DNA of 64,000 bases from Hemiscyllium ocellatum (Eukaryota): assembly GCF_020745735.1 (NCBI RefSeq), contig NW_026869102.1, positions 367 to 64,366 on the forward strand, read 5' to 3'. The notes under the pieces are model-generated. The model saw nothing but the letters and a program-made list of their open reading frames with translations. It did no database searches and was not told the DNA's origin. Shown piece by piece: positions 12,241 to 63,479 of the stretch (position 1 is the first letter of the stretch; every line of letters begins with the position of its first letter). The translations under genes and the position numbers were made by a program.

Positions 12241-12276
<36 letters not shown>

Positions 12277-19995: not shown

Positions 19996-20091
19996 ACACA
20001 TATTAGATGGGAAAGCAACCAGCCCAACACGCACAAAAGTTGCATCGGGACTCTGTTGAGGAGGGCTGCGGCACACCAGAACTGCAAAAAG

Positions 20092-20930: not shown

Positions 20931-20984
20931 ACTGACAGCTGCCTGGACCAATGGGAGCCACGGATCCCCGGGGCTGGGTGGGTG

Positions 20985-22155: not shown

Positions 22156-22159
22156 CTTT

Positions 22160-40677: not shown

Positions 40678-41079
40678 CTGCAACAGAACCAGTATTCGAT
40701 CAGAGCAAGAGTGGTGGCTGAGCGTCCTAACCAAGCAACATTCATTCTGGCAGAGGGAGGGACAGGGGCACGGGGAGAGACAGAGAGAGACACAGAGCAC
40801 TGAGGGAAGACAGCAAGGTGGTGGAGGGTGGTTGGGAAGAGTTTGAAGTGGAGTTACACACTGTGCACAACTGGAGAGAGAGTGAGGGTGATCTTTCAGC
40901 CTCAGGCCTGAGCGATGTGGTTAAAGCCCTTAATGTAGCACTTATTGATACAGCATTTACAGGATGAAAGAGAAAGAAAGTGTGCCGAGAGAGAGAGAGA
41001 GAGAGAGAGACAGGCCACGAGGGTGTGAGCACCAGAAAGATAATTGAAAGAGCAACAAAGGGACCCGACATAGCTGGAC

Positions 41080-41289
41080 CTTAATCAGGAGCACAGAGTG
41101 GCTGCGACTGGACCGACAATTCAACTTGGTGCTGGCTGTGGTCCGTCTTTGTGTGGCTGGCAGAAAGAACTGCTCAAACTCCACGAAGCTGGTGATGCGC
41201 TGCTGTGTCAGGTCGGGGACGAAGATGTTCTTGTCTTGGTCCTCTCGAATCGCCAAGTCTTGGTGCGTGGTCTCCAGTAGATCCAACAC
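41080..41289 (-). CDS. KIF22: KIF22 coding exon 4 (switch I SSRSHS)
   Basis: [70 protein letters not shown]. Anchored to ORF 40957..41460. Confidence 0.9.
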
Positions 41290-41716
41290 CTGAGAGACGT
41301 TGGAAATGTTACCATCCTCCAAAAGGCTGCTGGGAGAGTGCAGGGAACTGTGGGATACGAGGGGGTGGGGGTGCACAAGGTGTGTGTGTTTGAGAGCATG
41401 TGTGTGTGCGTGTGTGTGTATTGCAGGAATTGAGCACCACAGAGATAGGAGAAGGACCACACGTCCATAAACCGGAGCTGTTCACCACACGGGCAGGATG
41501 CAGGAGAAAGCATGGCACACTGTGCTCCCAGGGACGCTGGCTCTTTATGACAATTGGTACCAGTTTTGTGGTCACCATTATTGTTTTATTTCTTGGATTT
41601 GTCATTTGTCTGACTCATTGAAGTGGAATCCCCAGTGTCTGAGGTAGGATTTGAACCTGAATCTCTGAATTAATGTCCCTCTCCCCAACCTAACCAGGAC
41701 AACAAAGACGACTCAC

Positions 41717-41877
41717 CTTCTCCTGGTAGATCTCCAAGTAGGACATTGTCACATTAAATCTCCAGGAAGGTCCACACAGCTGGTCACTCTGCTCCTGCAC
41801 CATGCGAAATATGTCCAGCAGAGAACGAGGGACCACTCCGGGCTGTTTGGGACTGCCCAGCATGGTGTGGGTCTTAC
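41717..41877 (-). CDS. KIF22: KIF22 coding exon 3 (P-loop)
   Basis: (G)[53 protein letters not shown], then donor gtgagtc. The coordinates are anchored to ORF 41690..41896. Confidence 0.9.
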
Positions 41878-42545
41878 CTATCAATGAGAAAAACAAATAA
41901 AGACAGGAGAGGGGAATATGGACAGATCGGAGATGGCCCAGGGAATCCCTCGTGGACTCAACCTGTAAGCCTCTCGATTTGTCCCAGAGATCGTACCCTT
42001 TGGTAGTCTGGAATAAAAATACCTCGAACAGACAGTTTAGGTTAACCCCTTGATGTAACAGTTTAACATAACACTGATACCTATAAGCTAAACTAACTAG
42101 GTTGTAATAACCCAGGAGAGTAGGAGATCAGCTCTTCAAGAGCCCTGACAGGGTACTGTGCTGAACGGTCACTAACTGACTTCCTTTATACAAAAACCCT
42201 GCACATTCTTAACTAGACAGGTAACAGTGAAGGACAATAATTGGGGAGAGAAGTTAGTTGAGAGAGTTTTGTTTCAAGGCCAGAATCAACCAGTTATTTA
42301 TTTCACAAAGGAACAGCCGTGAATGCTATCACTGTGTTCTGTTGACACAGATTCACTGATGTCCTTCATGACCTTAACCTCCCTGCCTGTCTATTTTCTG
42401 GTGTGCAGCAAGTGTGTTTGACAATGCAACATGACATTTTAGTCTAAATGTTGAAGGACAGGTTTTAAGGCTGTCGGCTGTGTGAGGAGGCTGGTCACTA
42501 AGGAAAGAGGCAGGACAGTGGACAGTCACTCACTCACTCACTCAC

Positions 42546-42673
42546 CTGCTCCCGTAGGGCCATAGGCAAAGACACTGGCATTCTGTCCATTCAGGACATG
42601 GGATAGGATCGGTTTCACTGAATTCACATAGATCTCCAGCTGTGAGGTGTCATCACCATAAAAAGCATCGAAG
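42546..42673 (-). CDS. KIF22: KIF22 coding exon 2
   Basis: Acceptor ctgtctctcag, then (N)[42 protein letters not shown] plus G, then donor gtgagtg. Human: [43 protein letters not shown]. Confidence 0.85.
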
Positions 42674-43499
42674 CTGAGAGACAGGAGGAGGTGAGGTTTA
42701 GTACACTGAAGGGTCCAGCTGTTTCACAGACTGATACATTAATGTTGAATTAGGCAGTAAACGTCTGTGTGATTTACCATTGTAAATCGAGGGTTTAGCA
42801 CAAATGCCAAATTTCCACCTTTCCCTGTCCACAGGCAAACTCAGGAGTGCAGAGGAACCCAAACTCCATTTCTTTAAATAAACCAAACTAAAAGCAACAA
42901 CTGCCCATTGGGGTGATTGCAACATGAACCAAAACCAAAGACTAACGACAGAAATAGAATTAAAATAACGTTGGCTGGGGAAAACAGCGCGCAGCTGGTC
43001 TGAAGAACTTCAGAAAGGTTCAGTACAAATTCAGGACAGTAATCATGAACACTTTTATAACGTCCTTTTGCAAAAAGCCATCACCGTTTCCAAATGTAAT
43101 TTGCCACAAGTGTCCAGCTCAGCAAGTTAAATCAGACAAGTGAAATGTGACTGGTGCTCACAAACACCTCCGTTGTCATCACGTGGACACCCAGCTGTAG
43201 ACATAAACGTGAAGAGGTGAGCTTGCTACTTACCTACATGAGGAAGACCTACAAAGCCTTGCTTCCTCCACACCGGATGCTCAAAGAGCAGGTATCTGCC
43301 GCTGAAGTGATTCCTTAAGAATATGAAGAGAGGGTGCACCCTCCCACAACCTGCAGATATGTAGTTAGATTCCAAAAGGAAGACAGTGTTTTCTTTCCCC
43401 AAATATTAGAAAAATGAAACTGAGAAACCCTTCCCCTCCAACCACACCCAAGGCACCATCACACTATAACAAGAGCCCTACAGGGTTTTGATGACTAAT

Positions 43500-45150
43500 A
43501 ATATCCCTACTTAGAGTCAGAGAGATGGACAGCACGGAAACAGACCCTTCGCTCCATCCCGAACAAATAGCCTAACCTAATCTCGTCCCATTTGTCAGCA
43601 CTAGGCCCATTTGCCTCAAACCCTTCCTATTCATATACCCATCCAGATGCCTTTTAAAATGCTCCAATCGTACCAGCCTCCACCACTTCCTCTGGCAGCT
43701 CATTCCATACATGCATCATCCTCTGGCTGAAACAGTTGCCCCTTAGATCCCTTTTATATCTTTCCCCTCTCACCCGAAACCGCTGACCTCTAGTTCTGGA
43801 CTCCTCCATCCCAGGGAAAAGACTTGGCCTATTACCCCTATCCACACCCATCGTGATTTTATAAACCTCCATAAAGTCACCCCTTCAGTCTCCGACGCTC
43901 CAGGGGAAACAGCCCCACCTATTCAGCCTTTCCCTACAGCTCAAACCCTGGCAACATCCATCTTTCCAATAGGAAGGAGATCAGAACTGCATGCAATATT
44001 CCAACAGTGGCCTAACCAATGTCCTGTCCAGCCACAACATGACCCTCCCAACTCCTATACTTAACACTCTGCCCTACAAAGGAAAGCATACCAAACACCT
44101 TCTTCACTATCCTATCCACTTGGGACCCCACTTTCAAGGAGCTATGAACCTGCACTGTTGTTCTACAACACTCTTGGACCTTACCATTAAGCGTATAAGT
44201 CCTGCTAAGATTTGCTTTCCCCAAAATGCAGCACCTCACGTTTACCCAAGTTAAACTCCATCTGCCACTCCTCAGCCCATTGGCCCAGCTGATCAAGATC
44301 CCATTGTAATCTGAGGTAACCTACTTCACTGTCCACTACACCTCCAATTATGGTGTCACCATCCAACTATACCTCCTACGTTCACATCCAAATCATTTAT
44401 ATAAATGCCGAAAAGTAGTGGTCCCAGCACCGATCCTTGTGGCACTCCACTGGGCACAGGCATCCAGTCTGAAAAACAACCCTCCACCACCACCCTCTGT
44501 CTTCTCCCTTCAAGCCTGTTCTGGATCCAAATGGCTAGTTCTCCCTGTATTCCATGAGATCTAACCTTGCTAACCAGTCTCCCATGGGGAACCTTGGGAA
44601 ACACCTTACTGAAGTCCATATAGATCACGTCCACTGCTCTGCCCTCCTTTGGGACCAACAGGCCTGGGTTCAAATCCCACTTGTCCCAGAAACTTTTATT
44701 AGCGCCTCTGAACAAGCGAATTACCAAACATTGAACCAAATACTAAAATGTACAAGCAAAATTAAGTAAGAGCATGTTAAGGTCAAAATGTTAGTGGATG
44801 GGGAACTGATGAGCCCCAGCCAGAAGCCAGCTCTTAAATACAACTTACTCTTGATCAACTCTGGAGCTATTCCGGCATACCTTTCAAACAAACATCACTT
44901 CCAGGCCGACACTCTCTGGATGGAGGTGAAGGGAGGAGTCTGCTGGCTTGCAACGCTGAGCGATACCAACAGCATGTCCCAATCTCTCTCCACAGGAACG
45001 TTTTCCCAAGCCTCCACAACCCAGCCCAGAGTGACCAGATGTTTCAGGATTAAATTCCATCTGCCACTTCTCTGCCAAGTCTCCACCCTATCCATCTATC
45101 TATTTATCTCTATCCCACTGAATCCTTTGGCCATCTCAGGATGGTGAGGA
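43500..45150 (-). mobile_element. L2-clade LINE fragments (3' end at 43500-43980, RT plus 3' portion at 43990-45150) in KIF22 intron 1
   Basis: Minus ORFs 43654..43872 (..MEVYKITMGVDRGN..), 44012..44296, 44356..44739 ([50 protein letters not shown]...[21 protein letters not shown]), and 44895..45095. Confidence 0.65.
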
Positions 45151-45293
45151 GGGGTATTATCACTGCTGAGTGTTAACTCGGATCTCTGCAATTGTGCTCT
45201 GTTCTGACCTTACAGCCACATCAGTCCCAGCCAGGAGGTGGTGGGACGGTGGGCATGGGTCTGTCAGTGTAGGGGCACCTGTAGGACACTCAC

Positions 45294-45507
45294 TTGTACT
45301 GCATGGATTCTGTCCGGCTCCTCCAGTTCACAAGCTCCAGCGAGCGGGTGTCCAGGCCACGCACACAGGGGCCCTCCTGCTGCTCATCCTCTGTGGACTG
45401 GTAGGGTCGGAGCCGGACCACCACCTTCACCCGGGGGTGATGGGAACTGGCCATCTTCCTAAAGGGCTGCACATCCGCAGGAGGTAGGTTAGACATTGTC
45501 AACTGCA
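45294..45507 (-). CDS. KIF22: KIF22 first coding exon (ATG at about 45496)
   Basis: MSNLPPADVQPFRKMASSHHPRVKVVVRLRPYQSTEDEQQEGPCVRGLDTRSLELVNWRSRTESMQY plus AA, then donor gtgagtg. Compare human KIF22 ...[41 protein letters not shown]. Confidence 0.85.
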
Positions 45508-46789
45508 CTGGATGGAGAAAGAGAGAAAAAGATAAAAACAGTTAATAATATGGTCATTACTGCTGAGGGAGAGCTTGTTGGATGTGAGTACCACTGGCTG
45601 ACCCAGCATTTACCAGCCATCTCTCATTGCCCCTTGAGAAGATGGTGGTCAGCTCCCTCTTTGAACCACTGCAGTCCATGTGCTGTAGGTAAACCCACAA
45701 TGCCCTGAGGGAAGGATTTCCAGGATTTTGATCCAACACCACTGAAGGAACGGCGACGTATTCCAAATCTCGATGGTGAGGGGCACGGAGGGGAACTTGC
45801 AGGGGGTGGAGTTCCCATGTATCTGCAGCCCTTGTCCTTCTCAATGGAAGGGGCCACAGGTTTGGAAGGTGTTGGTGCAGGAGCTTTGGCAAACTCCTGC
45901 AGTGCACCTTGTAGATGATACACACTGCTGCTGGTAGTGGAGAGTGTGGATGTGGTACCAGTCAAGTTACTTTGTTCAGGTTAGGGGTCAAGCCTCAAGT
46001 GTTGGAGCTGTGCCCATCCAGACAAGTGGGGAATATTCTATCACACTCCCACCTTGTACTTGGTAAACATTAGACAGGCTTTGGGGAAGCCAGGAGCTGA
46101 ATTACTGGCTGTAGGGTTCCCAGTTTCTGATCTGTTCGAGTAACCGCAGTATTTGTATGGAGAGTCCAGTTCAGCTTCTGATAAAAGGTAACCCCCAGGA
46201 TGTTGGTAGCGGGGGATTCTATGATAGCAACACCACCGAATGTCACGAGGCAGTGGTTAGATTGTCTCCAATAGGAGAGTCATTGCCTAGCACTTGTGCA
46301 ATGCGAATATCACTTGCCACTTGTCAGCCCAAACCTGAACAGAATCCAGGTCTTGTTGCTTCTGGACTGCTTCAGTATCTAAGAAGTTGTGAAAGCTGCT
46401 GAACATTGTGCACTCATTGGCCAACGTCCCCACTTCTGACCTTACAGCAGAGACAAGGTCAGCGATAAAGCAGCTGAAGCTGGTTGGCTCCAGGGCATGA
46501 TCCTCAGGAGGTCCTCCAGGCATGTCCTGGAATTGAGAGGACTGGCCTCCTATGTGCCAGGGAAGTTCTCCATCCCCATCGATTCCAGTTTTACCCAGGC
46601 TCCTTGATGCCACACTTGGTCAAACGTGTCCTTGATGGGGTGTGGGTTGGCAGTGCCTTGAAAGCAGGGTCACAGGTACACAGGAGGGGGTGAAGGCAGC
46701 ATTAAGTACACTTGCCTTTACGAGTCAGTGCATTTAGTCCAGGGGTCATGGCATCAAAATTGGTGGGGTAGTGAACAATGAAGAAAGTT

Positions 46790-47500
46790 CAGAGTCCAAC
46801 AGGACCTTGAACAGATTGGCAGATGGAGTTTAATCTAGATAAGTGTAAGATGTTGCATTTTTGGAAAGGCAAACCAGGGCATGACTGATGTACTTAATGG
46901 TGACGTCCTGGGAGTGTTCCCCTGGGGGTACAGGTTCATTGTTCCTTGAAAGTGGAGTCGCAGTAAGATCGGATAGCAAAGGCCGAATTTGGCCTTTATT
47001 GGGCAGGATATGGAGTATAGAAGGTGGGAGGTCACCTCACAGCTGTACACTGGGACATGGGTTTTAGAAGGGGGAAGTGGAATCAGATTGAAACTTACAG
47101 GATACTGACCAGACTGGACAGAGTGGATGTTGGGAAGACGTTCCCATTGACAGGAGAGACTGGGACCCAAGGGCACAGCCTTAGACTAAAGGGAAGACCC
47201 TGTAGTACTGAGAGAAGGAGAAACTTCTTCCAGCCAGAGAGTGGGGAATCTATGGAGGCCAGGTCATTGGGCACATTTAAATCAGTGATAGATAAGTTCT
47301 TGATTGCCAAAGGGGATCAAAGGTTACAGAGAGAAAGCAAGAAAATGGGGTTGAAAGACCCATCAGCCACGATCAACTGACACAGCAGACTCGATGGGCA
47401 GAATGGCCTAATTTCTGCTCCAATGTCTTACAATCAGGCCGCATTTGGAATGCGGTGTTCGATTCTGGTCTCCCTGCTCCAGGAAGGATATTGTTAAACT
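46790..47500 (+). mobile_element. L2 3' end (plus orientation)
   Basis: It contains WQMEFN-type RT-end coding DNA (ggcagatggagtttaatctagataagtgtaag) followed by a 3' tail. The terminal region 63480-64000 is its reverse complement. Confidence 0.6.
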
Positions 47501-47929
47501 TGGAAAGGGTTCAGGAAAGCCTTACACGGAGGCTGTCAGGCTTTGAGGTATGGGAAGAGGCTGGGGGGTGGCAACGTATAGAGGTTCATAAAGGTCACAG
47601 GTATCATATACAAGGTGTACAGTCAAGCACTATTGCTCAGGGGAGGCCAAAACTAGAGGGGTATAGGTTTGAGGTGAGAGGGGGAAAGATTAACAAGGAT
47701 GTTGGAAGGTTTGAGCTTTAGGGAGAAGCTGAGGGCTGACCTTCGAGAGGAGTATAGGGTCATTGATAAGGTGAAGGGTCAAGGTCTTTTCCCTCAGGAC
47801 AAGGTGAGCGAAGACAAAATTAGAGAGAATGCTGAGGGACAGGATGTACATGTCTTTGGAAAGGCAAGGACTGATTTGGGATAGTCAGCATGGCTTTGTG
47901 CGTGGGAAATCCTGTCTCACAAACTTGAT

Positions 47930-49480
47930 TGAGTTTTTTTGAAGAAACAACAAAGAAGACTGATGATGGCAGAGCAGTAGATGTGATCTATATGGACTCC
48001 AGTAAGGCGTTCGACAAGGATCCCCATAGGAGACTGATTAGCAAGGTTAGATCTCATGGAATACAGGGAGAACTAGCCATTTGGATACAGAACTGGTTCG
48101 AAGGTAGAAGACAGAGGGTGGTGGTGGAGGCTTGGGAAAACATTCCCGTGGAGAGCGATTGGGACATGCTGTTGGTATCGCTCTGCGTTGCAAGCCAGCA
48201 GACCCCTCCCTTCACCTCCATCCAGAGAGTGTCGGCCTGGAAGTGATGTTTGTTTGAAAGGTATGCCGGAATAGCTCCAGAGTTGATTGAGAGTAAGTTG
48301 TATTTAAGAGCTGGCTTCTGGCTGGGGCTCATCAGTTCCCCATCCACTAACATTTTGACCTTAACATGCTCTTACTTACATTTGCTTGTACATTTTAGTA
48401 TTTGGTTCAATGTTTGGTAATTCACTTGTTCAGAGGCGCTAATAAAAGTTTCTGGGACAAGTGGGATTTGAACCCAGGCCTGTTGGTCCCGAAGGAGGGC
48501 AGAGCAGTGGACGTGATCTATATGGACTTCAGTAAGGTGTTTCCCAAGGTTCCCCATGGGAGACTGGTTAGCAAGGTTAGATCTCATGGAATACAGGGAG
48601 AACTAGCCATTTGGATCCAGAACTGGCTCAAAGGTAGAAGACAGAGGGTGGTGGTGGAGAGTTGTTTTTCAGACTGGAGGCCTGTGACCAGTGGAGCGCC
48701 ACAAGGATCGGTGCTGGGCCCTCTACTTTGTCATTTACGTAAATGATTTGAATGCGAGCATAAGAGGTACAGTTAGTAAGTTTGCAGATGATACCAAAAT
48801 TGGAGGTGTAGTGGACAGCAAAGAGGGTTACCTCAGATTACAACAGGATCTGGACCAGGTGGGCCAATGGGCTGAGAAGTGGCAGATGGAGTTTAATTCA
48901 GATAAATGTGAGGTGCTGCATTTTGGGAAAGCAAATCTTAGCAGGACTTATACACTTAATGGTAAGGTCCGAGGGAGTATTGCTGAACAAAGAGACCTTG
49001 GAGTGCAGGTGCATAGCTCCTTGAAAGTGGAATTGCAGGGAGATAGGATAGTGAAAACGTTTGTAATGCTTTCCTTTATTGGTCAGAGTATTGAGTACAG
49101 GAGTTGGGAGATCATGTTGCGGCTGTGCAGGACATTGGTTCGGCCACTGTTGGAACTGCGTGCAATTCTGGTCTCCTCCCTGTCAGAAAGACATTGCGAA
49201 ACTTGAAAGGGTTCAGAAAAGATTTACAAGGATGTTGCCAGGATTGGAGGATCTGAGCTACAGGGAGAGGCTGAACAGGCTGGGGCTGTTTTCCCTGGAG
49301 GGTCAGAGGCTGAGGGGTGACCTTATAGAGGTTTACAAAATTATGAGGGGCATGGATAGGAGAAATAGACCAAGTCTGTTCAATAGGGTCAGGGAGTCCA
49401 GAACTAAAGGGGCATAGGTTTAGGGTGAGGGGGGAAAAGGTATAAAAGGGACCTAAGGAGGTAACTTTTTTACCCAGAGG
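47930..49480 (+). mobile_element. L2-clade LINE RT plus 3' end fragment
   Basis: ORFs 47929..48246, 48402..48746 and 48691..49206 (..DDTKIGGVVDSKEGYLRLQQDLDQVGQWAEKWQMEFNSDKCEVLHFGKANLSRTYTLNGK..), and 49079..49417 (..LGLFSLEGQRLRGDLIEVYKIMRGMDR). Confidence 0.7.
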
Positions 49481-49489
49481 AAGTGGTGG

Positions 49490-50088
49490 AGGCTGGTACA
49501 ACTGCAACATTTAAGGGGCGTTTGGGTGGGTATAGGAATAGGAAGGGTTTGGAGGGATAGAGGCCGGGTGCTGGCAGGTGGGAATGGATTGGGTTGGGAT
49601 AACTGGGTCAGCACGGACAGGTTGGACCGAAGGGTCTGTTTCCGTGCTGTACATCTCTATGACTCTAGAGGTACAGGTTCATGGTGGGAAGGGGAAAGGT
49701 TCACAAGGATGTTAGAGGGTCTGAGCTGAAGGGAAGAGGCTGAGGGATGACCCTATAGAGGTTAATAGGGTCATGGGGGTCATGGATAAGGTGAAGGGTC
49801 AAGGTATTATCCCTCAGGGGGTGGTGAGGGAGGACAAAACTAGAGGGTCACAGGTTAAGGGTGAGAGGGGAAAGGTTCACAAGGATGTTGGAGGGTTTGA
49901 GCTGAAGGGGGGAGGCTGAGGGATAACCTTATAGAGGTTTATAGGGTCATGGGGGGGTCAGTGGGCAAGAACCAGAGGGTCAAAGGTCAAACATTTACAA
50001 AGGAACAACTTTTTCACGCGGAGAAGGTGCAGAGAGCTGGCCGAGGAAGCGATACAATAAATAACACCAGGAAAAGGCCGGTTTTTAC
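49490..50088. repeat. KIF22 intron-1 proximal repeat (about 100 bp internal tandem units plus an L2 tail). It is also present at 21.5-22.15 and 59.1-59.69 kb
   Basis: Near-identical blocks (ggggcgtttgggtgggtataggaataggaagggtttggagggatagaggccgggtgctggcaggtggg...) occur in all three places, always adjacent to the promoter/exon-1 module. Confidence 0.6.
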
Positions 50089-50130
50089 CTGTTTGCTGCT
50101 ATTTTAAACACAACGAGCCTCCTCCCGCCT
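50089..50130 (-). other. KIF22: putative non-coding KIF22 exon 1 (5' UTR). The 5' boundary (TSS) is not determined
   Basis: The minus strand reads ...gtgtttaaaatagcagcaaacag|gtaaaaacc (donor). It lies 4.6 kb upstream of the first coding exon. That exon begins with a strong acceptor, ctttttctctctttctccatccag|TGCAGTTGACAATG. Confidence 0.35.
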
Positions 50131-50870
50131 CCCAACCGCCGCCCGATTTAAATCTGATCAAAGCCCCGCCCCCCCGGCCTGAGCGCCTCATCCTATTGGT
50201 CCTCCGCCACATCCTCACACCGCTCTCATTGGCCGCTCAGCTCAGGAACGCCCCTTTACTCCTGCCCAGACCCTGCCTCCGGTTGGTGCGGGCGCCCGTC
50301 AATCGTAGGCGAGCCCGCTTTTCCCATTCGTCGGATGCCTCATCGCTGATCACGTGTCCCAGCGGCCATTGGACACTCCGCGCGTGTCCGGCCTCTGAAG
50401 CCCCGCCGCCTCCAACTTTGCTGTTGCTTCTCGTCTCATCCTAACGCCCGCCCTCCTGGCCCCATCCTCACTTTCCATTGGCTACCCTTCTCCCCCATCG
50501 GATTGGATGGACTCGTTGCCAGTCATTGGTCTTGCCGTATCAACGTCGGTAATGCCTCGCGCGAAACCAATCAATCCCGCCCACTTCCCGGAGTCCTCCG
50601 CCAACCATTGGCTCCTTCTGTAGCTCCCCAGCGTTATGTGATTCCTATTGGTCCAGACACCTATCAGTCATCTCCAAACTGCCGCCTGCTGCCGCCGCCC
50701 TCTATCAATCAATCCTATGAAGATGACCCTCCCCGCACAGGCCCTCACTCTTTATTGGCTGTTCACGGTGTCAATCGGCCGGCCCCTGCGCGCCATTGGG
50801 CCGTCGCCGCAGCCCATCAGTGTAGGGGGCGTGGTGGGACCCTCCTGTCTCCCGCCCACATTGAGCCTCC
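50131..50870 (-). promoter_or_regulatory. KIF22: KIF22 promoter, a CCAAT-box cluster (at least 10 boxes) with GC boxes and TTTAAA (CHR-like) elements (copy B)
   Basis: It is the reverse complement of copy A, extended distally with further CCAAT boxes (gaccaatagg, gcccaatggcg, cagccaataaag, gattgattgatag). The CpG content is retained. Dense NF-Y plus CHR architecture is typical of G2/M genes such as kinesins. Confidence 0.45.
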
Positions 50871-51049
50871 AGTTGAAGGTGTGGTGGGTGTTGTGGAACT
50901 AACTGTCGAACAGTTGGGATGGTATGAGATGTCTGAAGAAGCTATACCACGTGTCACATTGGCAGTGCATGCTGAATATCAAGCCAAGGATCTGGAACCC
51001 ATGTCCAAATGCTTGATGCCGCTAACTGATTGGGTTTAGACTTAGTTAC

Positions 51050-54000
51050 CCAGCTTACAATATTCACCCTTTGTTGAAGCTTATAGAATCCTGTACCTTG
51101 GATGCTGCCTGACCTGCTGTGCTTTTCCAGCATTTTCAGCTCTGATACTCCAGCATCTGCAGACCTCACTTTCTCCCAGAATTATGTACAGGACAACTGA
51201 CAAGGTGCTACTGGAACATCGGCAGATTGAAAGGTTCCATGGCAGGGAAAAGACAGACCATCTACAGGCTGCAGCGATGCTTGATACTCTACCAGATACC
51301 TTGTGGTCAGCAGGTTCGACGGACGTTGGTCACTGCCAACACGTCACACCAATCACATTCCATTTAATAGACCACACTCCAATTTGGCAGAGACAATACC
51401 CACACAAACCAGAGGCTGAAGCTGGCATTGCCGACACAGTTGAAGGATGTAGGGATACTAGCATCAGTAGCATCAAAGCAGTAGGGGTGCTAGAATCCTC
51501 CCAGTCAGCCTGGAACACTCCTATCTTACCTGTAGAGAAGCAGAATACAGGCAAATATAGGATGGTGCATGATCTTAGACGGATCAATAGAGTCGTTTCT
51601 ACTCCAACAGTTCCAGTCTCAAACCCCTTACACTGCGATGTCTGAGCTGACCCCTGACCATAAGTGGTTCTCGTGCATTGATCTGGCCAACGCGTTCTTC
51701 TGTTTGCCCCGAGCTGATCATTTGAGGGACATTTTTTCGTTCACATACAAAGGCCAACAACTTCGTTATACAAGGGTCCCTCAAGGATTCATTTTGTCGC
51801 TTGGGGTGTTTAATCAGGTACTGAAACAGCAGCTGAAGGATCTGACGCTCCCAAACAGGGTGGTATTGATCCAGTATGTGGATGATATTCTTTTGACGGC
51901 ACCCGACCATGTTTCTTGTTTGGCAGCTACAAAGTTGTTGCTGCTTCTCCTGTATAACAGTGGTTTCAAAGTTTCATGGGCTAAATTGCAATGTTGCAGA
52001 CAAACAGTGTCTTTTTTGGGTAGAGTTATTTCCGCTAAGGGAACAGGTGTGTCTCCGTCCCATAGATCCTCCATTCTGCATCATACCAAACCAGTCACTG
52101 TAAAAGACATGCTCATTTCTTGGGTTGGCAGGATACAGTAGACAATTCGTTGCATTATATGGGGAGCTCACTTTCCCTCTAAAGGGCCATGGTAAATGAA
52201 CAAGGTATGAGAAATTTGTCAGCCCATTTGCAGTGGACCACGGAGAGAGACGAAAGTTTCATATCTCTTAAACAGGCCCTAACGCGGGCTGCTGATTTAG
52301 CGGTCCTGGATTACAAAGAGCCATTTTTCCTCTATTTCTGAAAAAGTACATACAATAAATGGCATTCTTTTTCAGAAAAAAGGGGGTGGCAGGCAGGTGC
52401 TAATGTATGTAAGTGTTACCCTTGACCCAATAGGAGGACAGACACCCACCATGTACAAGACATGCAGCAGGGGTAACAAAAATTCTCCAAAAGGTAGCAC
52501 ATAGTCATGGGCGATTCACTAACAGTACTGACGACATTATATTATAGTGGCCAATGTGAACTCAACAGCCTTCACAATGGCATCACTGCAGCAAACCAGG
52601 TTAGAGAAAATCCTGAATGCACCACATAATTTTTACACATGAAGAATTAACATGGCTGATAACATGGGAGAAAGAGAGCCACATATGTGCCCTTTCCTCA
52701 CACAGACGTCAAAATTAGGGCAGATTTACAGGCAATTCCATTAGTAGACCCAGAAGAAGCGCTGTTCACAGATGGTTGCTGTTACAGACATCCCACTTAG
52801 CTTTAATGTCCATTAGAAGCTCAGTAAACTATCACAGGGTTCACCCCGTACGAGCTAACAGGGCAGCAGTTCCCAGGACCAGGAGCTGGAATACAGATGT
52901 TAGAGGAAGGAGGAGCCTCTCTATGGTACAAACCTTATTATGACCAACTAACAGCTTTGGTCTCAGCTTTCTCCACACAGGTTGGTTCAGGAAAGGGGGA
53001 CCTACAGAGCCAGGCACCATCTACCACAGACTGGGTCCTGTGGAAGGTGAACAAATGGAAAAGGTCGGAGCCACGGTGGGCAGGACCTTACAAGGTGGTG
53101 GAAAGGACATCTCATGTGGTCTGACGACAGGGGAAAGGAGAAAGCTGTTACCATTGGAGCCAGTGTGCAGCTACGGAACCGCCAATGAGAACTCTAGAAC
53201 AAATAAGAACAGAAAGAGTAGAAGGGTCTTTAACTTTTAACTTTTGTGCAAAGGATATCATGTCTATCTTTGTAACTAGCCCACATTACCCCAGGCTGTT
53301 GGGGTTGGGAGTTTTTGCTATTATTTTATGGATAAGTGTTATGCCACTGTTAATAAGGGTATCAACCGCAAGGGACAAACAGACGAGGGAGAAAGTCCCA
53401 GGAATAAGAGATCAACAGGACAAGAGATGGACAGATGTTTAAGGGAGGCAGGGAGCCGGGTGCACAGACATGATAAAACGGGTGGTACAACATACCAGTT
53501 TGACTTGTGCCAAGTAATAGACTGTGGCCAAAATACAGGGAGCTGGAGGGAGTATGATGTATACCTTTGCATCTACACCATTGATTATCACCCATGCCCA
53601 TCGTGGGATGATGTATTAACATGGACTGGGGTACAATGGACACCTAAGAAGTTGTCACCCTCGGATAATAGATGGGAAGTTCAAGACCATGTGAGCCTGA
53701 CTAAGGGATCATTCCTCAGAGCTTAAAAAATCCACTCTTGTTAACCCTGACAAAATTCGACACTAACCCTGGTCCCAAAGAGGTACAGATTTACTGAGGG
53801 AGTGATGATAGAAGCTTTTATTTTGTAATAGATGTGGATACCATGGGACTAGTGACGGTAAACCTTAGTGGACCCTCCTACGAACCAGCCACAAACCGAA
53901 AACACAACAAGCATGGTGGTAGAACCAAGTTCAGGAGTTGTGACAGTAGACTATAACAACCTCCTGAGAAGGGACATTATTACATTAGCCACCTGGTATG

Positions 54001-54540
54001 GGGATAAGAACGTACGGCTGGACTGGATGACAGCGACCGCAATCTCAATGAATAGGAGTAATTGTGTCGCGTGTTCCTCAGCCAGGCCAACCCTATTTAC
54101 CACCCCAGCCCCATTGTTCCCTAATGTAGACCCAGCAGGATTTCACTGCATGATGGCTCTCACCATGCAGGCAGACCCCCCCAAATTGTACCACCTTAAG
54201 TGTTATTTTTCCTCCTGTAAAGAATTCCATGTTACCTCCAGTGTTTACCCCAAGGGCCAACAATTACACTTGTTTCACTTAAAGATCGAATACAGTCTTG
54301 GGAGACATGCCCACTGACTGGTGTCAGGATACGATTAATGTAACCGGCTGGCAGAATGCTAGCACAATGGTTTGGGCCAGAGCTGATCTTTTTTGGTACT
54401 GTGGAGATAGATCCCTACAGATTAGTCTACCTCCAGATTGGGCTGGAACCTGTGCAATGGTCAGGCTAGGGGTACCCTGAACACTTAGAAAGACTACAGG
54501 GACTAGATCAGCATGCACGAATACGCAGGGATCTGTTTGA
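51050..54540 (+). mobile_element. endogenous retrovirus internal fragment (class I gamma/epsilon-like; partial pro-pol, IN C-terminus, env SU). No LTRs or gag were recognised
   Basis: ORF 51184..51645 encodes ...SAWNTPILPVEKQNTGKYRMVHDLRRINRVV, the gammaretrovirus-type RT N-terminus. ORF 51569..52141 carries ..LIQYVDDILLTAP.. (the YVDD motif). ORF 52897..53124 carries ..RWAGPYKVVERTSHVV (IN C-terminus). ORFs 53868..54480 are env-like, with the CVAC (CXXC) motif and ..LFWYCGDRSLQISLPPDWAGTCAMV. Confidence 0.75.
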
Positions 54541-54633
54541 TGTCACATCTGGCTCAACCACTTACACAGATGCAGGAAGTGTTCCTCGCGGTGTACCTGA
54601 TGAATATAAGTTGGCAGACCAGCACAATTGAAA

Positions 54634-54834
54634 ATGTCTAACCTACCTCCTGCGGATGTGCAGCCCTTTAGAAGATGGCCGCTTCCCATCACCGCTGGGT
54701 GAAGGTGGTGGTCCGGCTCCGACCCTACCAGTCCACAGAGGGCGAGCAGCAGGAGGGCCCCTGTATGCGTGGCCTGGACACCCGCTCGCTGGAGCTTGTG
54801 AACTGGAGGAGCCGGACAGAATCCATGCAGTACA
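54634..54834 (+). pseudogene. KIF22: inverted pseudo-copy of the KIF22 first coding exon
   Basis: Near-identical to the reverse complement of 45294-45496. It has a 1 bp deletion (ttaggaag to ttagaag), which frameshifts the reading frame, and a mutated donor (gtgagt to gtgact). The flanking intron sequence is also duplicated (54543-54960 matches 45170-45510). Confidence 0.8.
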
Positions 54835-54959
54835 AGTGACTGTCCTACAGGTGCCCCAACACTGACAGACCCATGCCCACCATCCCACCACCTCCTGGCT
54901 GGGACTGATGTGGCTATAGGGTCAGAACAGAGCACAATTGCAGAGATCACAGTTAACAC

Positions 54960-57125
54960 TCAGCAGTGATAATACCCCTTCTCACCATCCTGAGATGGCC
55001 AAAGGATACAGTGGGATAGAGATAAATTCAAAGTTTGGGAGTAGATTTGTAGCTCGGGTACTCGTTGTGGTTCTGTTCGCTGAGCTGGGAGTTTGTGTTG
55101 AAAACTACTGACACCCAGAAGCGGCAGAGACAAGCCACTATAAATGCCGGAGGAAACATCACAGAAGCGCTTCATAGGAGGCTCCCAAGCACTAAGGATG
55201 TCACCTAGAAAGGGGACGAAACATTTGCAACACAAACTCCCAGCTCAGCTAACAGAACCACAACGAGCACCCGAGCTACAAATCTTCTCCCAAACTTTGA
55301 ACACCTACGGGCGAGAGACGCCAAGACAAGCCAGGAAATGGGAATCCTATGCCAACCACCTAAGCCCCACACACGAACAACTCCAGTTCCTGCATCAACG
55401 CTGAAGGATGAGAATCCTTCCACCATGTGTCAGATACAGACCACCAGTCAACAATTCACAAGCCAGGGACACAGCCAGACAGAACGGACTCAGGATGATC
55501 CAGGTAATGATTCCAGACGCTCACAGACTTCACAAATACAGACAAGAAATTGCACACCAAAAATCATTAATTTCAAAAACCACCAATCAGGAATGGACCC
55601 AGACCGTAGAACAGGCCGTAGTACCAAACAGGACTACACACCACATAAAAACAGTGCTAAAAGAAAAGTGGCCAAACTAACAACGAAGACACCACAACAC
55701 ACACCTGGGTTAAAAACCTCTCCCACAGACACGGAAAGAACAATACTGGCCAAGGGACTCAACTACAACCACAGGAACACCAAGACAGCAGACTTCCTAG
55801 CAGCACTAGAATGCACACTCGGGAACAATGGATTGACAGAAGAGACACCAAACAGCGAGACAAAGTATCGTACCTCTGATAACAAGGAAAAGACACTCTC
55901 AACACCAAGGAGAGAGAAGTACTAAAATCACTAAGAAATGATAGGAACGTAATCGTGCTGCCAGCAGACAAAGGCAGAATGACAGTCATACTGGACAAAG
56001 CAGAGTACATCCAAAAGGCACAACTACTTGCAGATACCAACATCTACCCAAAGAGAGAGTCTGACCCCACCCCACAGCTCACCAATAGGATAAACACACT
56101 GAGGAATCTACAAAAAAACGGACAGATAACCAGGTCTGACCTACAAAGAATGAAACCGGAAAGGAACACCACCCCCAGATTCTATGGACTACCTAAAGTA
56201 CACAAACCAGACATCCCACTCAGACCCATAGTATCACTACCAGGGACACCATCACACAAACTGGCTAAAGAGCTACAGCAGAAACTGAAACACCTGATCA
56301 GCAGATCCAAACAATCTATACAATCAACAGGAATTCTTGGACATCAGAAATATACACAGACAAGGAAGAAACCATGGTCTCATTCGATGTAATGGCACTG
56401 TTCACCTCTATCGACAAAACCCTAGCCAGAGAAACAATATCCAACCTGCAGGACATACAGAACAGACAACAGGACGTTGAACCTATTAACAAAGACGGCA
56501 TACTTAAACTACTGGACCTGTGCCTCACAACACACTTCACATTCAACAACCAGATATACGAACAAATCAACAGAACACCCATGGGCTCACCGATCTCTGG
56601 ACTCACAGCAGAAGCAGTAATGCAAAGGTTAGAACAAACAGTCTTACTGCAAATACAACCCAAACTCTGGGTCAGATATGTGGGTGACACCTTTGTAATC
56701 ATTAAAAACAGAAATAGAGAACACACACCGGATCATCAACGCCACCCTCACAGGAATCTGATTCACGAGAGAGGAAGAAAAGGACAAACAGCTCCCATTC
56801 CTAGACGTGATGGTACAGAGAACACCGAATGGAGAATTCACTACAAAGGTATACAGGAAAGCCACACACACAGACTAAGTCCTGAACTATGAAAGCAACC
56901 ACCCCAACCCACACAAACAAAATTGCATCAGGACACTATTCAAAAGGGCCACAACATGCTGCAGCACACCAGAACTACAAAAAGAGGAACACAAGGTATT
57001 CACCAAAAACAGATACTCGCACAATTTCATCAACAGATGCCTAAGGGAGAGACAACGGAACGAGGACATGCCGCAACCCAAGTTGAAAGGGTTCTAAAAA
57101 GATTTGAAAGATATAAAGGGACCTA
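54960..57125 (+). mobile_element. degenerate Penelope-like element (3' tail of one copy at 54960-55300, then an RT region with frameshifts)
   Basis: ORFs 55955..56892 encode ..HFTFNNQIYEQINRTPMGSPISGLTAEAVMQRLEQTVLLQIQPKLWVRYVGDTFVIIKN.., the PLE RT (compare 22.4-22.7 kb). At 55.17-55.22 there is a mutated hammerhead-like core (CUAAGGAUG). Confidence 0.6.
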
Positions 57126-57129
57126 AGGG

Positions 57130-57360
57130 GCAACTGTTTCACCCAGAGGGTGATGCATGTATGGAATGAGCTGCCAGAGGAAGTGGAGGAGGCTGGTACG
57201 ATTGGAACATTTAAAAGGCATCTGGATGGGTATATGAATAGGAAGGGTTTGAGGCAAATGGGACAAGATTAGGTTAGTCTATTTGGTCAGGATGGACTGA
57301 AGGGTCTGTTTCCGTGCTGTACATCTCTGACTCTAAGTAGGGATATTACTAGTAATCAAA
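57130..57360 (+). mobile_element. L2 3' tail
   Basis: ..ggaagtggaggaggctggtacgattggaacatttaaaaggcatctggatgggtatatgaataggaagggtttgag...gtctgtttccgtgctgtacatctctgactc. It is the reverse complement of 43500-43700, so it belongs to the inverted duplication. Confidence 0.6.
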
Positions 57361-57374
57361 ACCCTGAGGGGCTC

Positions 57375-57537
57375 TTGTTATAATGTGATGGTGCCTTGGG
57401 TGTGTGGGGGGGGGGGGGAAAAACACGTCACAGCTGGAATTCAGTATGTGAATTCAGTGAAACCGATCCTATCCCATGTCCTGAATGGACAGAATGCCAG
57501 TGTCTTTGCCTATGGCCCTACGGGAGCAGGTGGGTGA
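57375..57537 (+). pseudogene. KIF22: inverted pseudo-copy of KIF22 coding exon 2 (diverged 5' part with a G-rich insertion, intact 3' part plus donor)
   Basis: ..tatgtgaattcagtgaaaccgatcctatcccatgtcctgaatggacagaatgccagtgtctttgcctatggccctacgggagcag|gtgggtgagtg matches exon 2 at 42546-42640. The flanking intron (57545-57945) matches 42130-42545 in reverse complement. Confidence 0.75.
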
Positions 57538-57952
57538 GTGACTGTCCACTGTCCTGCCTCTTTCCTTAGTGACCAGCCCCCTCAGAGCCTACAGCCTTAA
57601 AACCTGTCCTTTAACATTTAGACTAAAATGTCATGTTGCATTGTCAAACACACTTGCTGCACACCAGAAAATAGACAGGCAGGGAGGTTAAGGTCATGAA
57701 GGACATCAGTGAATCTGTGTCAACAGAACACAGTGATAACATTCACAGCTGTTCCTTTGTGAAATTAATAACTGTTTGATTCTGGCCTTGAAACAAAACT
57801 ATCAATTAACTTCTCTCCCCAATTATTGTCCTTCACTGTTGTCTGTCTAGTTAAGAATGCGCAGGGTTTTTGTAAACCTTCTTGTATAAAGGAAGACAGT
57901 TTGGGACCGTTCAGCACAGTACCCCGTCAGGGTTGTAGAAGAGCTGATCTCC

Positions 57953-58151
57953 CCACTAGAGACCACGCACCAAGACTTGGTGATTCGAGGGGACCAAGAC
58001 AAGAACATCTCCGTCCCCGACCTGACACAGCAGCACATCACCAGCTTCGTGGAGTTTGAGCAGTTCTTTCTGCCAGCCACACAGACAGACCACAGCCTGC
58101 ACCAAGTTGAATTGTCGGTCCAGTCGCAGCCACTCTGTGCTCCTGATTAAG
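57953..58151 (+). pseudogene. KIF22: inverted pseudo-copy of KIF22 coding exon 4 (switch I). Exon 3 is deleted
   Basis: It matches 41080-41282 in reverse complement, with a 2 bp deletion (acaaagacggacc to acagacagacc) that frameshifts it. A deletion spanning original 41290-42120 removes the GKTHTM exon. Homology ends about 10 bp after the exon donor. Confidence 0.75.
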
Positions 58152-58779
58152 GTCCAGCTAAGACGGGGCAGCCCATTGCTGTCGGGTCCTGTATTCTGGT
58201 TAGCCCGTTCCCCGGGGTTTCCACCCACGGGTGAATCCATTAACAGCGCCGTTGCCAGGCTTCCTCTCAAACCTGCGCCCGTAGACCCTCGGCTCACCGC
58301 AGGGCTGGAAGTGACCGCTGTTCCTCACCCTGCCATCTCCCGCCTGCAGCCTCCCGGGTGTTGCCTGGTGGTAGTATCCACCCTCAGGGCCTGGGAGCCT
58401 CCCCAGGGGCCGGGAGGAGCTGCCTTCACTTCCCAGAGCCCGGCCCGCGGGCCGATAGTATCCACTGTCCCCTCCGCCTCCACCACCGCCGTCTTAACGC
58501 CGGACAGTAGTTTGTACCAACGCCATTGGCTGAGCCCAGGCTCCTGTGTTCATCCACCTCACGATTGACCGAGTTCTCCATGTCCCTCTTCAGCACCGTA
58601 TCTGTTACACAGCCCCAGACCTACAGGCAGGGAGACAGACAGACAGACAACACCTGGGCATTGACACCAGAGAGACAGGCCACTGAAGGCAGCTACCATC
58701 ATACTTCCCTCCATCAGTCAGAGCATCAATTCTCGGAGGTGGGACATCCTGCTGGTCGGGTATAACAGGCAGGGGTGTG

Positions 58780-59050: not shown

Positions 59051-59689
59051 ATGTGGTACACTCACTTCCCCCTCCCTCCCTTCTGGAGGGAGTGGTGGAG
59101 GCTGGGACGACTGCAACATTTAAGGGGCGTTTGGGTGGGTATAGGAATAGGAAGGGTTTGGAGGGATAGAGGCCGGGTGCTGGCAGGTGGGAATGGATTG
59201 GGTTGGGATAACTGGGTCAGCACGGACAGGTTGGACCGAAGGGTCTGTTTCCGTGCTGTACATCTCTATGACTCTAGAGGTACAGGTTCATGGTGGGAAG
59301 GGGAAAGGTTCACAAGGATGTTAGAGGGTCTGAGCTGAAGGGAAGAGGCTGAGGGATGACCCTATAGAGGTTAATAGGGTCATGGATAAGGTGAAGGGTC
59401 AAGGTATTATCCCTCAGGGGGTGGTGAGGGAGGACAAAACTAGAGGGTCACAGGTTAAGGGTGAGAGGGGAAAGGTTCACAAGGATGTTGGAGGGTTTGA
59501 GCTGAAGGGGGGAGGCTGAGGGATAACCTTATAGAGGTTTATAGGGTCATGGGGGGGTCAGTGGGTAAGAACCAGAGGGTCAAAGGTCAAACATTTACAA
59601 AGGAACAACTTTTTCACGCGGAGAAGGTGCAAAGAGCTGCCCGAGGAAGCGATACAATAAATAACACCAGGAAAAGGCATAGTTTCCGG

Positions 59690-60292
59690 CCGGTTTTTAA
59701 CCTGTTTGCTGCTATTTTAAACACAACGAGCCTCCTCCCGCCTCCCAACCGCCGCCCGATTTAAATCTGATCAAAGCCCCGCCCTCCTCCCGGCCCGAGC
59801 GCCAGCGCCTCGCCTTCCATTGGCTACCCTCCGGGAGGTGGGCGGGGGTGATTGGTTGCGCGCGCGGGGCATTACCGACGTTGATACGGCAAGAGCAGTG
59901 ACTGGCAACGGGTTTATCCAATCCGATGGGGGAGAAGGGGTAGCCAATGGGAAGCGAGGTTAGGGCCGGGAGTGCGGGTGTTGGGGGGGGGTGAGAGTTG
60001 GAGGCGGCGGGGCCTCAGAGGCCGGACACGCGCGGAGTGCCCAATGGCCGCTGGGCCACGTGATCCGCGGTGAGGCATCCGATTGACGGGCGGCCGGACC
60101 AACCAGAGGCAGGTACTGGGTAAAGGGGCGTTCCTGAGCTGAGCGGCCAATGAGAGCGGTGTGGGGATGCGGCGGAGGACCAATAGGACGAGGCGCTCGC
60201 GCTCGGGGGGGGCGGGGCTTTGGTCAGATTTAAATCGGGCGGCGGTTGGGAGGCGGGAGGAGGCTCGTTGTGTTTAAAATGGCAGCAAACAG
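59690..60292. promoter_or_regulatory. copy C of the promoter plus exon-1 module, arranged as a head-to-head palindrome
   Basis: 59690-59805 carries exon 1 plus the proximal promoter in minus orientation (..cctgtttgctgctattttaaacacaacgagcc..gatttaaatctgatcaaagccccgcc). 59810-60292 carries the full CCAAT-cluster promoter plus exon 1 in plus orientation, ending ..gtgtttaaaatggcagcaaacag|gtaaaaacc at about 60292. Confidence 0.5.
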
Positions 60293-60339
60293 GTAAAAAC
60301 CGGCCTCTTACCTGGTGTTATTTATAGTAATCTGAGGTC

Positions 60340-62060: not shown

Positions 62061-62069
62061 CAATTATGG

Positions 62070-63050
62070 TGTCACCATCCAACTATACCTCCTACATTCA
62101 CATCCAAATCATTTATATAAATGCCGAAAAGTAGTGGACCCAGCACCGATCCTTGTGACACTCCACTGGGCACAGGCCTCCAGTCTGAAAAACAACTCTC
62201 CACCACCACCCTCTGTCTTCTCCCTTCAAGCCTGTTCTGGATCCAAATGGCTAGTTCTCCCTGTATTCCATGAGATCTAACCTTGCTAACCAGTCTCCCA
62301 TGGGGAACCTTGGGAAACACCTTACTGAAGGCCATATAGATCACGTCCACTGCTCTGCCCTCCTTCGGGACCAACAGGCCTGGGTTCAAATCCCACTTGT
62401 CCCAGAAACTTTTATTAGCGCCTCTGAACAAGCGAATTACCAAACATTGAACCAAATACTAAAATGTACAAGCAAAAGTAAGTAAGAGCATGTTAAGGTC
62501 AAAATGTTAGTGGATGAGCCCCAGCCAGAAGCCAGCTCTTAAATACAACTTACACTCGATCAACTCTGGAGCTATTCCGGCATACCTTTCAAACAAACAT
62601 CACTTCCAGGCCGACACTCTCTGGACGGAGGTGAAGGGAGGAGTATGCTGGCTTGCAACGCAGAGTGATACCAACAGCATGTCCCAATCTCTCTCCACAG
62701 GAACATTTTCCCAAGCCTCCACCACCACCCTCTGTCTTCTACCTTCGAACCAGTTCTGTATCCAAATGGCTAGTTCTCCCTGTATTCCATGAGATCTAAC
62801 CTTGCTAATCAGTCTTCTATGGGGATCCTTGTCGAACGCCTTACTGGAGTCCATATAGATCACATCTACTGCTCTGCCATCATCAGTCTTCTTTGTTGCT
62901 TCTTCAAAAAACTCAATCAAGTTTGTGAGACAGGATTTCCCACGCACAAAGCCATGCTGACTATCCCAAATCAGTCCTTGCCTTTCCAAAGACATGTACA
63001 TCCTGTCCCTCCTCATTCTCTCTAATTTTGTCTTCCCTCACCTTGTCCTG
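62070..63050 (-). mobile_element. L2 RT fragment continuous with the tandem array
   Basis: Minus ORFs 62072..62455 and 62600..63016 (..[79 protein letters not shown]..). Confidence 0.7.
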
Positions 63051-63142
63051 AGGGAAAAGACCTTGACCCTTCACCTTATCAATGACCCTATACTCCTCTC
63101 AAAGGTCAACCCTCAGCTTCTCCCTAAAGCTCAAACCTTCCG

Positions 63143-63450: not shown

Positions 63451-63479
63451 TTGTTAATCTTTCCCTTTCTCACCTCAAA

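Follow-up and report, generated by a model that had tools for sequence, protein, structure and literature searches.

A decayed inverted copy of the 5' part of KIF22 in a transposable-element-rich interval of the Hemiscyllium ocellatum genome

A 64 000-nucleotide stretch of the Hemiscyllium ocellatum genome (hereafter the window; NCBI RefSeq assembly GCF_020745735.1, contig NW_026869102.1, positions 367 to 64,366 of the forward strand) carries the kinesin gene KIF22 on its minus strand. An earlier description of the window, made from the letters alone and here called the sequence-only reading, had proposed that the 5' region of this gene recurs upstream of it as an inverted, frameshifted pseudogene. 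This raises the question of whether such a second copy truly exists, how it could have arisen next to its own source, and whether it could have any bearing on the gene that it mirrors. When the window was compared with its own reverse complement using BLAST, the KIF22 5' region at 41064-45511 (minus strand) was indeed found to recur in inverted orientation at 54619-58167 (plus strand), as four collinear blocks having E-values between 5e-92 and 0, far past what would be expected by chance. The inverted duplication as proposed was thereby confirmed, and the limits first given for it, 41080 and 58151, were also correct, being the outer exon edges of the two arms.

Only 1445 bp of the copy survive, corresponding to about one third of the 4448-bp source segment, and these are split into four aligned blocks of 213-516 bp. 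No further collinear pieces beyond these four were found when the window was searched against itself using BLAST with a word size of 7. With 95.2% substitution identity over the 1445 aligned bp, the pair of arms falls within the usual operational definition of a segmental duplication (at least 1 kb at an identity of at least 90%), with the aligned sequence having been split into short blocks by later deletions. The arms are arranged head-to-head, with the copy located about 9 kb upstream of KIF22 beyond a spacer of 9.1 kb, and with arm midpoints at 49.6-50.1 kb. At its far end the homology stops about 15 nt past the exon-4 donor, in good agreement with the distance of about 10 bp given earlier, and no homology was found past the exon-4 block (Smith-Waterman score of 15, compared to 12.8 +/- 1.6 for shuffled sequences). 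An extension by eye of about 40 nt downstream of exon 4, for which 19 nt would have to be inserted and 24 nt deleted, was not significant.

The copy cannot encode a kinesin. In pseudo-exon 1, one base pair is missing at 54671 (between codons 12 and 14), and this loss is a true coding frameshift because the start codon of the parent is the upstream ATG at 45496 (MSNLPPADVQPFRKMASS...) and not an internal Met, as determined by alignment with Pristiophorus KIF22. The donor of the same pseudo-exon, at 54836, reads GTGACT compared to GTGAGT in the parent. Pseudo-exon 2 lacks its first 23 nt together with the acceptor and carries an insertion of two nucleotides (+2) at 57443-57444, while pseudo-exon 4 lacks its first 11 nt together with the acceptor and has lost 2 bp at 58083, with block 4 continuing for about 15 nt beyond the donor of this pseudo-exon (AAG/GTCCAG). 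The two frameshifting deletions and the donor change had all been noticed in the sequence-only reading and were borne out by alignment of the arms, but its count of two frameshifts was one too few, the +2 insertion being the third. Between blocks 2 and 3, the parent has 783 bp where the copy has 10 bp, and between blocks 3 and 4 the corresponding figures are 845 bp and 2 bp, with the latter loss beginning within intron 2 and extending through exon 3 and intron 3 into the start of exon 4. The motif CTACT is found as a microhomology on both sides of this latter junction. Cryptic splicing as the origin of the deletions could be ruled out, as none of the junctions has a GT...AG or otherwise splice-site-like appearance. 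The loss of exon 3 had been correctly recognized at the outset, although this exon, then described as the P-loop exon, holds only a part of the P-loop. The motif GPTGAGKT is split between two exons, with GPTGAG in exon 2 being kept in the copy and only the Lys-Thr in the deleted exon 3. When the reading frame of the copy was corrected, Pfam saw motor-domain fragments only. The copy has the features of an unprocessed pseudogene, with homology that extends into introns, disabling lesions and, judged from small numbers, relaxed coding constraint. The features typical of a processed pseudogene or retrocopy are lacking, as introns are kept, without any A-rich tail or target-site duplications.

The level of divergence was about the same in all parts of the copy. 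Counting substitutions only, the Kimura two-parameter (K2P) distances of the four blocks were 0.051, 0.058, 0.046 and 0.044, with 69 differences in the 1445 aligned bp overall (K2P 0.049), and this uniformity fits a single duplication event. Coding sites differed at 17 of 504 positions (3.4%) and other sites at 52 of 941 (5.5%; Fisher p = 0.07), with the lower divergence of the coding sequence being the expectation for one constrained and one free lineage. Thirteen of the 17 coding differences were non-synonymous and four synonymous, a ratio that appears near-neutral. At all of the five non-synonymous sites that could be polarized with Pristiophorus or Mustelus KIF22 (V45, and E16, F23, R49 and S53, with the last four numbered within exon 4), it was the parent that had the ancestral residue. 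The duplication would be some tens of millions of years old if neutral sites changed at 0.5-1e-9 per site per year, a rate that is assumed and not measured. It would also be much younger than the split from the shark Mustelus, since the exon DNA identity to Mustelus is only about 80-85%. There was no sign of arm-to-arm homogenization or of excess conservation in any of the four blocks, with K2P being 0.044-0.058 in each.

The parent gene, on the other hand, is intact. Fourteen coding exons could be traced down to a stop codon near 24.48 kb, and all of the splice sites that were read directly were canonical (11 of 11 acceptors with AG and 11 of 11 donors with GT). The resulting 636-aa model contains a complete Kinesin domain (Pfam E 6e-100, profile positions 1-325 of 327) as well as an HHH_3 domain at residues 574-615 (E 1.9e-7; 31.5 bits with a cut-off of 27). 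The motor region matches the solved KIF22 motor structure PDB 6nje with an E-value of 2.4e-146, with the next kinesin at about 1e-60. The top database relatives were all KIF22 or 'kinesin-like protein' of vertebrates, with the closest matches of the C-terminal part being found in the sharks Mustelus asterias and Pristiophorus japonicus, as is fitting for chondrichthyan and probably elasmobranch DNA. The initial identification of the gene as KIF22 was thereby confirmed, and with its motor domain, its C-terminal helix-hairpin-helix (HHH) DNA-binding domain and KIF22 orthologues as its best relatives, the parent has the properties of a member of the kinesin-10 family.

The transposable elements (TEs) within and between the arms helped to clarify in what order the locus may have been formed. 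Block 2 consists of the C-terminal coding end and tail of a CR1/L2-type long interspersed nuclear element (LINE), followed by 78 bp of unique flank. The match to other members of this family within the window stops where the LINE ends (43512 in the parent and 57335 in the copy). As the unique 78-bp flank is shared between the arms, the LINE should already have been present in intron 1 at the time of duplication, and the copy should have been made from genomic DNA. Unique to the copy is a fragment of a Penelope-like retroelement, constituting the 2079 bp between blocks 1 and 2 and oriented as the KIF22 pieces, with 78-bp inverted end pieces (55027-55104 and 55224-55301) and a reverse transcriptase (RT) fragment (RVT_1) at 56.3-56.9 kb. 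This element is 85% similar to an element at 22346-23602 and 3'-truncated relative to it. Since 3' truncation is not made by target-primed insertion, it would have been a later deletion that took the end of the element together with the LINE body (43764-45021 in the parent). The related element at 22346-23602 is an open reading frame (ORF) of 419 aa (stop to stop) having an RT domain, and in our own reading also a GIY-YIG-like motif (VVYKIPCKDCTKHYIGQTG), for which Pfam gave no score.

The spacer between the arms is made up of 1.6 kb of old sequence, a LINE (47148-50670) and a region resembling an endogenous retrovirus (ERV; 51.0-54.3 kb). With an identity of 96-99% to other copies in the window, the spacer LINE is closer to these than the KIF22 arms are to each other, and it should therefore have arrived after the duplication. 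As these spacer insertions postdate the duplication, the original spacer would have been much shorter, and the symmetry about a point near 50 kb, although numerically correct as first described, is thus incidental and does not carry the meaning of a palindrome that had been attached to it. The ERV-like region lies directly upstream of the copy on the same strand, its downstream ORFs have no Pfam matches, and no pair of long terminal repeats (LTRs) was found for it. Direct repeats of 95.5% identity at 49477-50187 and 59086-59803 are LINE 3' ends, also seen at 20929-22381 with a different 5' truncation, and are therefore not LTRs of the ERV. Transduction of the KIF22 fragment by the ERV was ruled out, as there is no LTR pair and as a retroviral insertion would not be expected beside its own source. 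LINE 3' transduction was likewise ruled out, since no LINE immediately precedes the copy and its 3' end bears no tail. The coordinates of all these features are compiled in Table 1.

Table 1. Features of the KIF22 locus and its inverted copy in the window. Block identities are from the self-BLAST; those of blocks 2 and 3 count gaps.
Feature	Position	Strand	Remarks
Whole parent KIF22	24480-45496	-	14 coding exons, 636-aa model; 3' end coordinate approximate
Parent arm	41064-45511	-	First coding exon to exon 4 with introns 1-3; from inverted BLAST blocks and tblastn with shark KIF22
Parent coding exon 1, coding part	45294-45496	-	ATG at 45496; donor GTGAGT from 45293
Parent exon 2	42546-42673	-	Ends ...GPTGA-G, first part of P-loop
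Parent exon 3	41717-41877	-	KTHTMLGSP..., P-loop Lys-Thr; no match in copy
Parent exon 4	41080-41289	-	Holds switch I, SSRSH
Old LINE in parent intron 1	43512-45021	-	Tail 43512-43764 predates duplication
Copy block 1	54619-55027	+	Pseudo-exon 1 (54634-54835) and 190 bp of intron 1; parent 45511-45102; 410 bp, 94.9%, E 0
Copy block 2	57106-57412	+	CR1/L2-type LINE tail and 78 bp of unique intron-1 flank; in common with parent 43764-43433; 332 bp, 87%, E 3e-99
Copy block 3	57423-57952	+	Pseudo-exon 2 (57423-57529), 5'-truncated, and about 420 bp of intron 2; parent 42650-42123; 542 bp, 91%, E 0
Copy block 4	57955-58167	+	Pseudo-exon 4 (57955-58151), 5'-truncated, and about 15 nt of intron 4; parent 41278-41064; 215 bp, 94.9%, E 5e-92
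Penelope-like retroelement fragment in intron 1 of copy	55027-57105	+	Absent from parent
Young LINE of spacer	47148-50670	+	RT domain; CpG-rich 3' extension
ERV-like pol and downstream ORFs of spacer	51046-54317	+	RVT_1 E 2e-20; weak match to murine leukaemia virus integrase C-terminal domain
Copies of short interspersed nuclear element (SINE)-like family	10535-10858, 19704-19994, 20088-20359, 34803-35105, 63145-63447		Five copies

Taking these results together, we consider it most probable, at roughly 0.8, that the locus originated in a local inverted partial duplication of the 5' part of KIF22 at the level of DNA, with the duplicate subsequently having decayed to an unprocessed pseudogene fragment. 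About 4.4 kb with introns included, beginning slightly upstream of the start codon and ending shortly beyond exon 4, would have been copied, through either replication template switching or break repair, and placed inverted and head-to-head a few kilobases upstream of the parent. Never having been a complete gene, the copy would thereafter have evolved without constraint, gaining its three frameshifts, a weakened splice donor and mostly non-synonymous substitutions. The Penelope-like retroelement would have inserted into it, and at least three kilobase-scale deletions would have cost it exon 3 together with the start of exon 4, the acceptor of exon 2 and the greater part of the intron-1 LINE, with the LINE and ERV later inflating the spacer to 9.1 kb. 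The parent would have stayed intact and carried the function, with the copy probably having no function of its own. Such an inverted segmental duplication followed by decay was also what the sequence-only reading had preferred, and it accords well with the equal divergence of the blocks, the kept introns, the shared LINE tail with its flank, the disabling indels and deletions, and the 13:4 ratio of coding differences. In particular, the keeping of introns and of a pre-existing LINE with its flank, the lack of a poly(A) stretch, other tail or target-site duplication, and the position beside the source argue for a DNA-level event and not for retroposition. No A-rich or microsatellite tail was found after 58167, and no target-site duplication, there being no shared k-mer of at least 7 nt at the two flanks of the copy.

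Some observations weigh against this interpretation. The left end of the copy lies 15 nt upstream of the ATG, at a candidate acceptor, and its right end 15 nt past the exon-4 donor; that both ends should fall about 15 nt from exon edges is not predicted by a plain DNA duplication, with the post hoc chance being in the order of 0.2-1% by a rough estimate. The original junctions are obscured, with the ERV adjoining the left one and unique GC-rich sequence the right one, and the mechanism could only be inferred. The position and orientation of the copy, as well as its presumed lack of expression, are taken from this single assembly. It is because both ends adjoin exon edges that we also considered an RNA-templated origin, in which a nascent and largely unspliced KIF22 transcript, extending from the vicinity of its 5' end to a point shortly beyond exon 4, would have been reverse-transcribed by a local RT and the cDNA captured at a nearby break, with the internal deletions being template jumps of the RT. 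Ends that adjoin exon edges or a transcript-like start, the short microhomology at a deletion junction, a retroelement oriented like the KIF22 pieces, and the crowding of the locus with RT-encoding LINE, ERV and Penelope-like elements would all suit such an origin. We nevertheless find it quite unlikely, as the copy has kept approximately 190 and 300 bp of intron 1, 420 bp of intron 2 and some 15 nt of intron 4, no poly(A), microsatellite tail or target-site duplication is found at the ends, ordinary retroposition would not land 9 kb from the parent, and the 3'-truncated retroelement fits a later DNA deletion and not a template jump.

Another question was whether the arrangement could be a product of the assembly. 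The sequence-only reading had offered as its alternative that two diverged paralogous loci had been collapsed by the assembler, and a variant of this is that the KIF22 fragment is real but was mis-joined beside KIF22 through the LINE copies of 0.5-1.5 kb and 95-98% identity that flank it (47148-50670, 59086-59803 and 61600-64000). In favour of this variant, the KIF22 contig of another shark, Mustelus asterias, breaks inside exon 4. We regard a mis-join as improbable, however. The window has no N in its 64 kb, consisting of A, C, G and T only, and two long tandem arrays, one of 29-bp units (6.4 kb) and one of 43-bp units (1.7 kb), are resolved without gaps, which implies long reads that would have been able to span the 0.5-1.5-kb LINE repeats. 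Each of the repeats is furthermore connected to what lies beside it by unique sequence. Fold-back chimeras and haplotig duplications, for which near-identical arms would be expected, are excluded by the approximately 5% divergence together with the arm-specific insertions and deletions, including the 2-kb retroelement and three kilobase-scale deletions that set the arms apart. Neither near-identical arms nor gaps at joins, as expected for an artefact, were thus seen, and the collapse that had been suggested is not favoured by the data. Nothing was on record from independent assemblies regarding the junctions, as judged by exact look-ups of the ORFs that span 54619 and 58167 and of the ERV and Penelope-like ORFs. 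When proteins were searched using exons 1-4, no N-terminal KIF22 of a chondrichthyan was recovered for which there was a contig, and the orthologous 5' locus was absent from the only shark contig obtained, which starts inside exon 4. This Mustelus asterias contig (CAXOWL010001919.1, 66 kb) carries KIF22 exons 5-14 and ends 75 nt inside exon 4, nearly at the same place as the duplication ends in the window, which could be either a coincidence or a sign of a repeat boundary there too.

We also evaluated whether the copy, although dead as a gene, could act through its RNA. The sequence-only reading had pointed to antisense or hairpin RNA because the copy reads opposite to the real exons. For constructs of the arms alone, nearly complete pairing was computed (396 of 409, 496 of 530 and 208 of 213 nt), including unbroken helices of 92-153 bp. 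The argument for antisense RNA was imprecise. The arms are head-to-head, transcription of the copy in its own sense would give KIF22-sense RNA, and an antisense or hairpin RNA needs a minus-strand transcript that passes through the copy or through both arms. Such a transcript might start to the right of the copy, in the GC-rich and CCAAT-containing sequence at 58.2-58.55 kb, possibly being the KIF22 promoter itself, and run through the copy into KIF22, whereupon the double-stranded RNA (dsRNA) would tune expression by yielding endogenous small interfering RNAs (esiRNAs), recruiting ADAR or disturbing splicing. The sequence at 58168-58560, which directly abuts the copy, is unique, has a GC content of 0.61-0.67 with an observed/expected (o/e) CpG ratio of 0.53-0.65, and contains a AGCCAATGG box and GT-donor-like sites on the minus strand, making it a candidate promoter or first exon. 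Over the 1.6 kb that immediately precede the first coding exon, neither a CpG island nor a promoter motif was seen. This exon follows a polypyrimidine tract and CAG, suggesting an upstream non-coding exon. There are also precedents elsewhere, since pseudogene inverted repeats that yield esiRNAs have been documented, for example psi-PPM1K (PMC3616710), and vertebrate genomes show an enrichment of inverted duplicates that are expressed and structurally stable (PMC5398296). The likeness to such loci lies in the reverse-complementary arms derived from a protein-coding gene, with long dsRNA being possible upon co-transcription. They differ in that transcription and small RNAs have been demonstrated there, and in that the loop at KIF22 would be 9 kb, with one arm being a functional gene and not a second pseudogene arm.

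Against a regulatory hairpin stands the neutral decay of the copy, with its large deletions and its 2-kb retroelement. Such heavy decay argues against selection for arm integrity, which has not been preserved, and the arms show neither excess conservation nor homogenization. The loop would moreover be composed of 9 kb of TEs, the scan of both candidate upstream regions for CCAAT, CHR, Sp1, TATA and donor motifs was uninformative, and no Rfam family matched. On balance a regulatory role of this kind seems unlikely to us. More specific, and very unlikely, is the possibility that a KIF22 promoter and a non-coding first exon are located at about 58.3-58.55 kb on the minus strand, which would place the pseudo-copy inside the first intron of the gene's own transcript. 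If true, each KIF22 pre-mRNA would begin with an antisense image of coding exons 1, 2 and 4, followed by the real exons, and would be able to form dsRNA stems of 200-500 bp over coding sequence. Those could be substrates for ADAR editing, Dicer processing or splicing interference, and would thereby constitute a built-in autoregulation of a mitotic kinesin.

Comparing the locus with known systems, we found that it agrees best with the DNA-level duplication and decay that we favour. Unprocessed pseudogene fragments derived from segmental duplications share with it the introns, the nearness to the parent, the partial extent, the lesions and the neutral substitution pattern, with nothing essential being different, except that the blocks are here short (215-540 bp) and that the segment ends unusually near exon edges. 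The amplicon palindromes of sex chromosomes have arms that are kept homogeneous by gene conversion, being intact and typically more than 99% identical. The present locus is similar in having two inverted arms and a spacer, but its arms are about 5% diverged with arm-specific deletions and TE insertions, and are thus far from a homogenized palindrome. Inverted duplications can also arise during replication by fold-back priming, by fork stalling and template switching (FoSTeS) or by microhomology-mediated break-induced replication (MMBIR). A local inverted copy by its source and a short microhomology at an internal junction are in common with these, although the primary junctions at KIF22 are unreadable owing to TEs and unique flanks, so that a mechanism of this type is deduced indirectly. 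We found no report of an inverted KIF22 pseudogene in the literature.

Several further properties of the repeats in the window were seen. Within the parent intron-1 LINE, the middle 1 kb is 97-100% identical to a LINE at 61.6-62.7 kb, compared to about 89% in the 5' 85 nt and about 80% in the tail, and has probably been homogenized through gene conversion. Between the spacer LINE and the right-hand copy, identity drops at 48646, from 96-99% before this point to 83-89% beyond it. The mosaic identity of these three local LINE copies (43512-45021, 47148-49667 and 60338-64000), with the tract ending where collinear donor homology ends, suggests ectopic gene conversion. At 60338-62228, the 3' part of the LINE body has given rise to a tandem triplication of a unit of about 570 bp, with 94-98% identity, and two partial copies of the LINE 3' extension form an inverted repeat at 59.65-60.33 kb. 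The stretches at 49901-50800, 59501-60400 and 20901-21700 are CpG-island-like (GC 0.58-0.60, CpG o/e 0.81-0.84), being this same LINE 3' extension and not promoters. The SINE-like family of about 300 bp has 83-95% identity among its copies, one of which interrupts the right-hand LINE. It also occurs in a Mustelus asterias contig at about 85% identity and gave no tRNA or Rfam match, and neither scan found anything elsewhere in the window.

Tandem repeats were also noted. A C-rich 29-bp minisatellite with the consensus CCCCCTCCCTATCACCGTCACCCCCTACA occupies positions 1-6366 in about 228 copies, with a GC skew near -0.85, and continues beyond the left window border. At 11700-17800, minisatellites that are C-rich and CA-rich and have periods of 12-144 bp form a cluster of CpG-island-like composition, where no convincing gene was found among ORFs of at least 90 aa. 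A 43-bp tandem repeat (27259-28920; 38.7 copies, 93% matches) lies in one of the late introns of KIF22, flanked by the exons near 29.2 kb and 25.6 kb.

The KIF22 copy is a feature of an ordinary kind, a dead duplicate in a TE-rich interval, and it would be relevant to gene regulation only if it were co-transcribed with KIF22. It does call for caution in annotation, as gene predictors and protein-to-genome aligners may pull the opposite-strand pseudo-exons 1, 2 and 4 into KIF22 or call a spurious 'KIF22-like' gene, and as read mappers will split reads between the two arms. For the genome in which it resides, the locus is a dated snapshot of TE-driven remodelling in a cartilaginous fish, with duplication, retroelement invasion, kilobase deletions and apparent LINE-to-LINE gene conversion having all left their traces in it.

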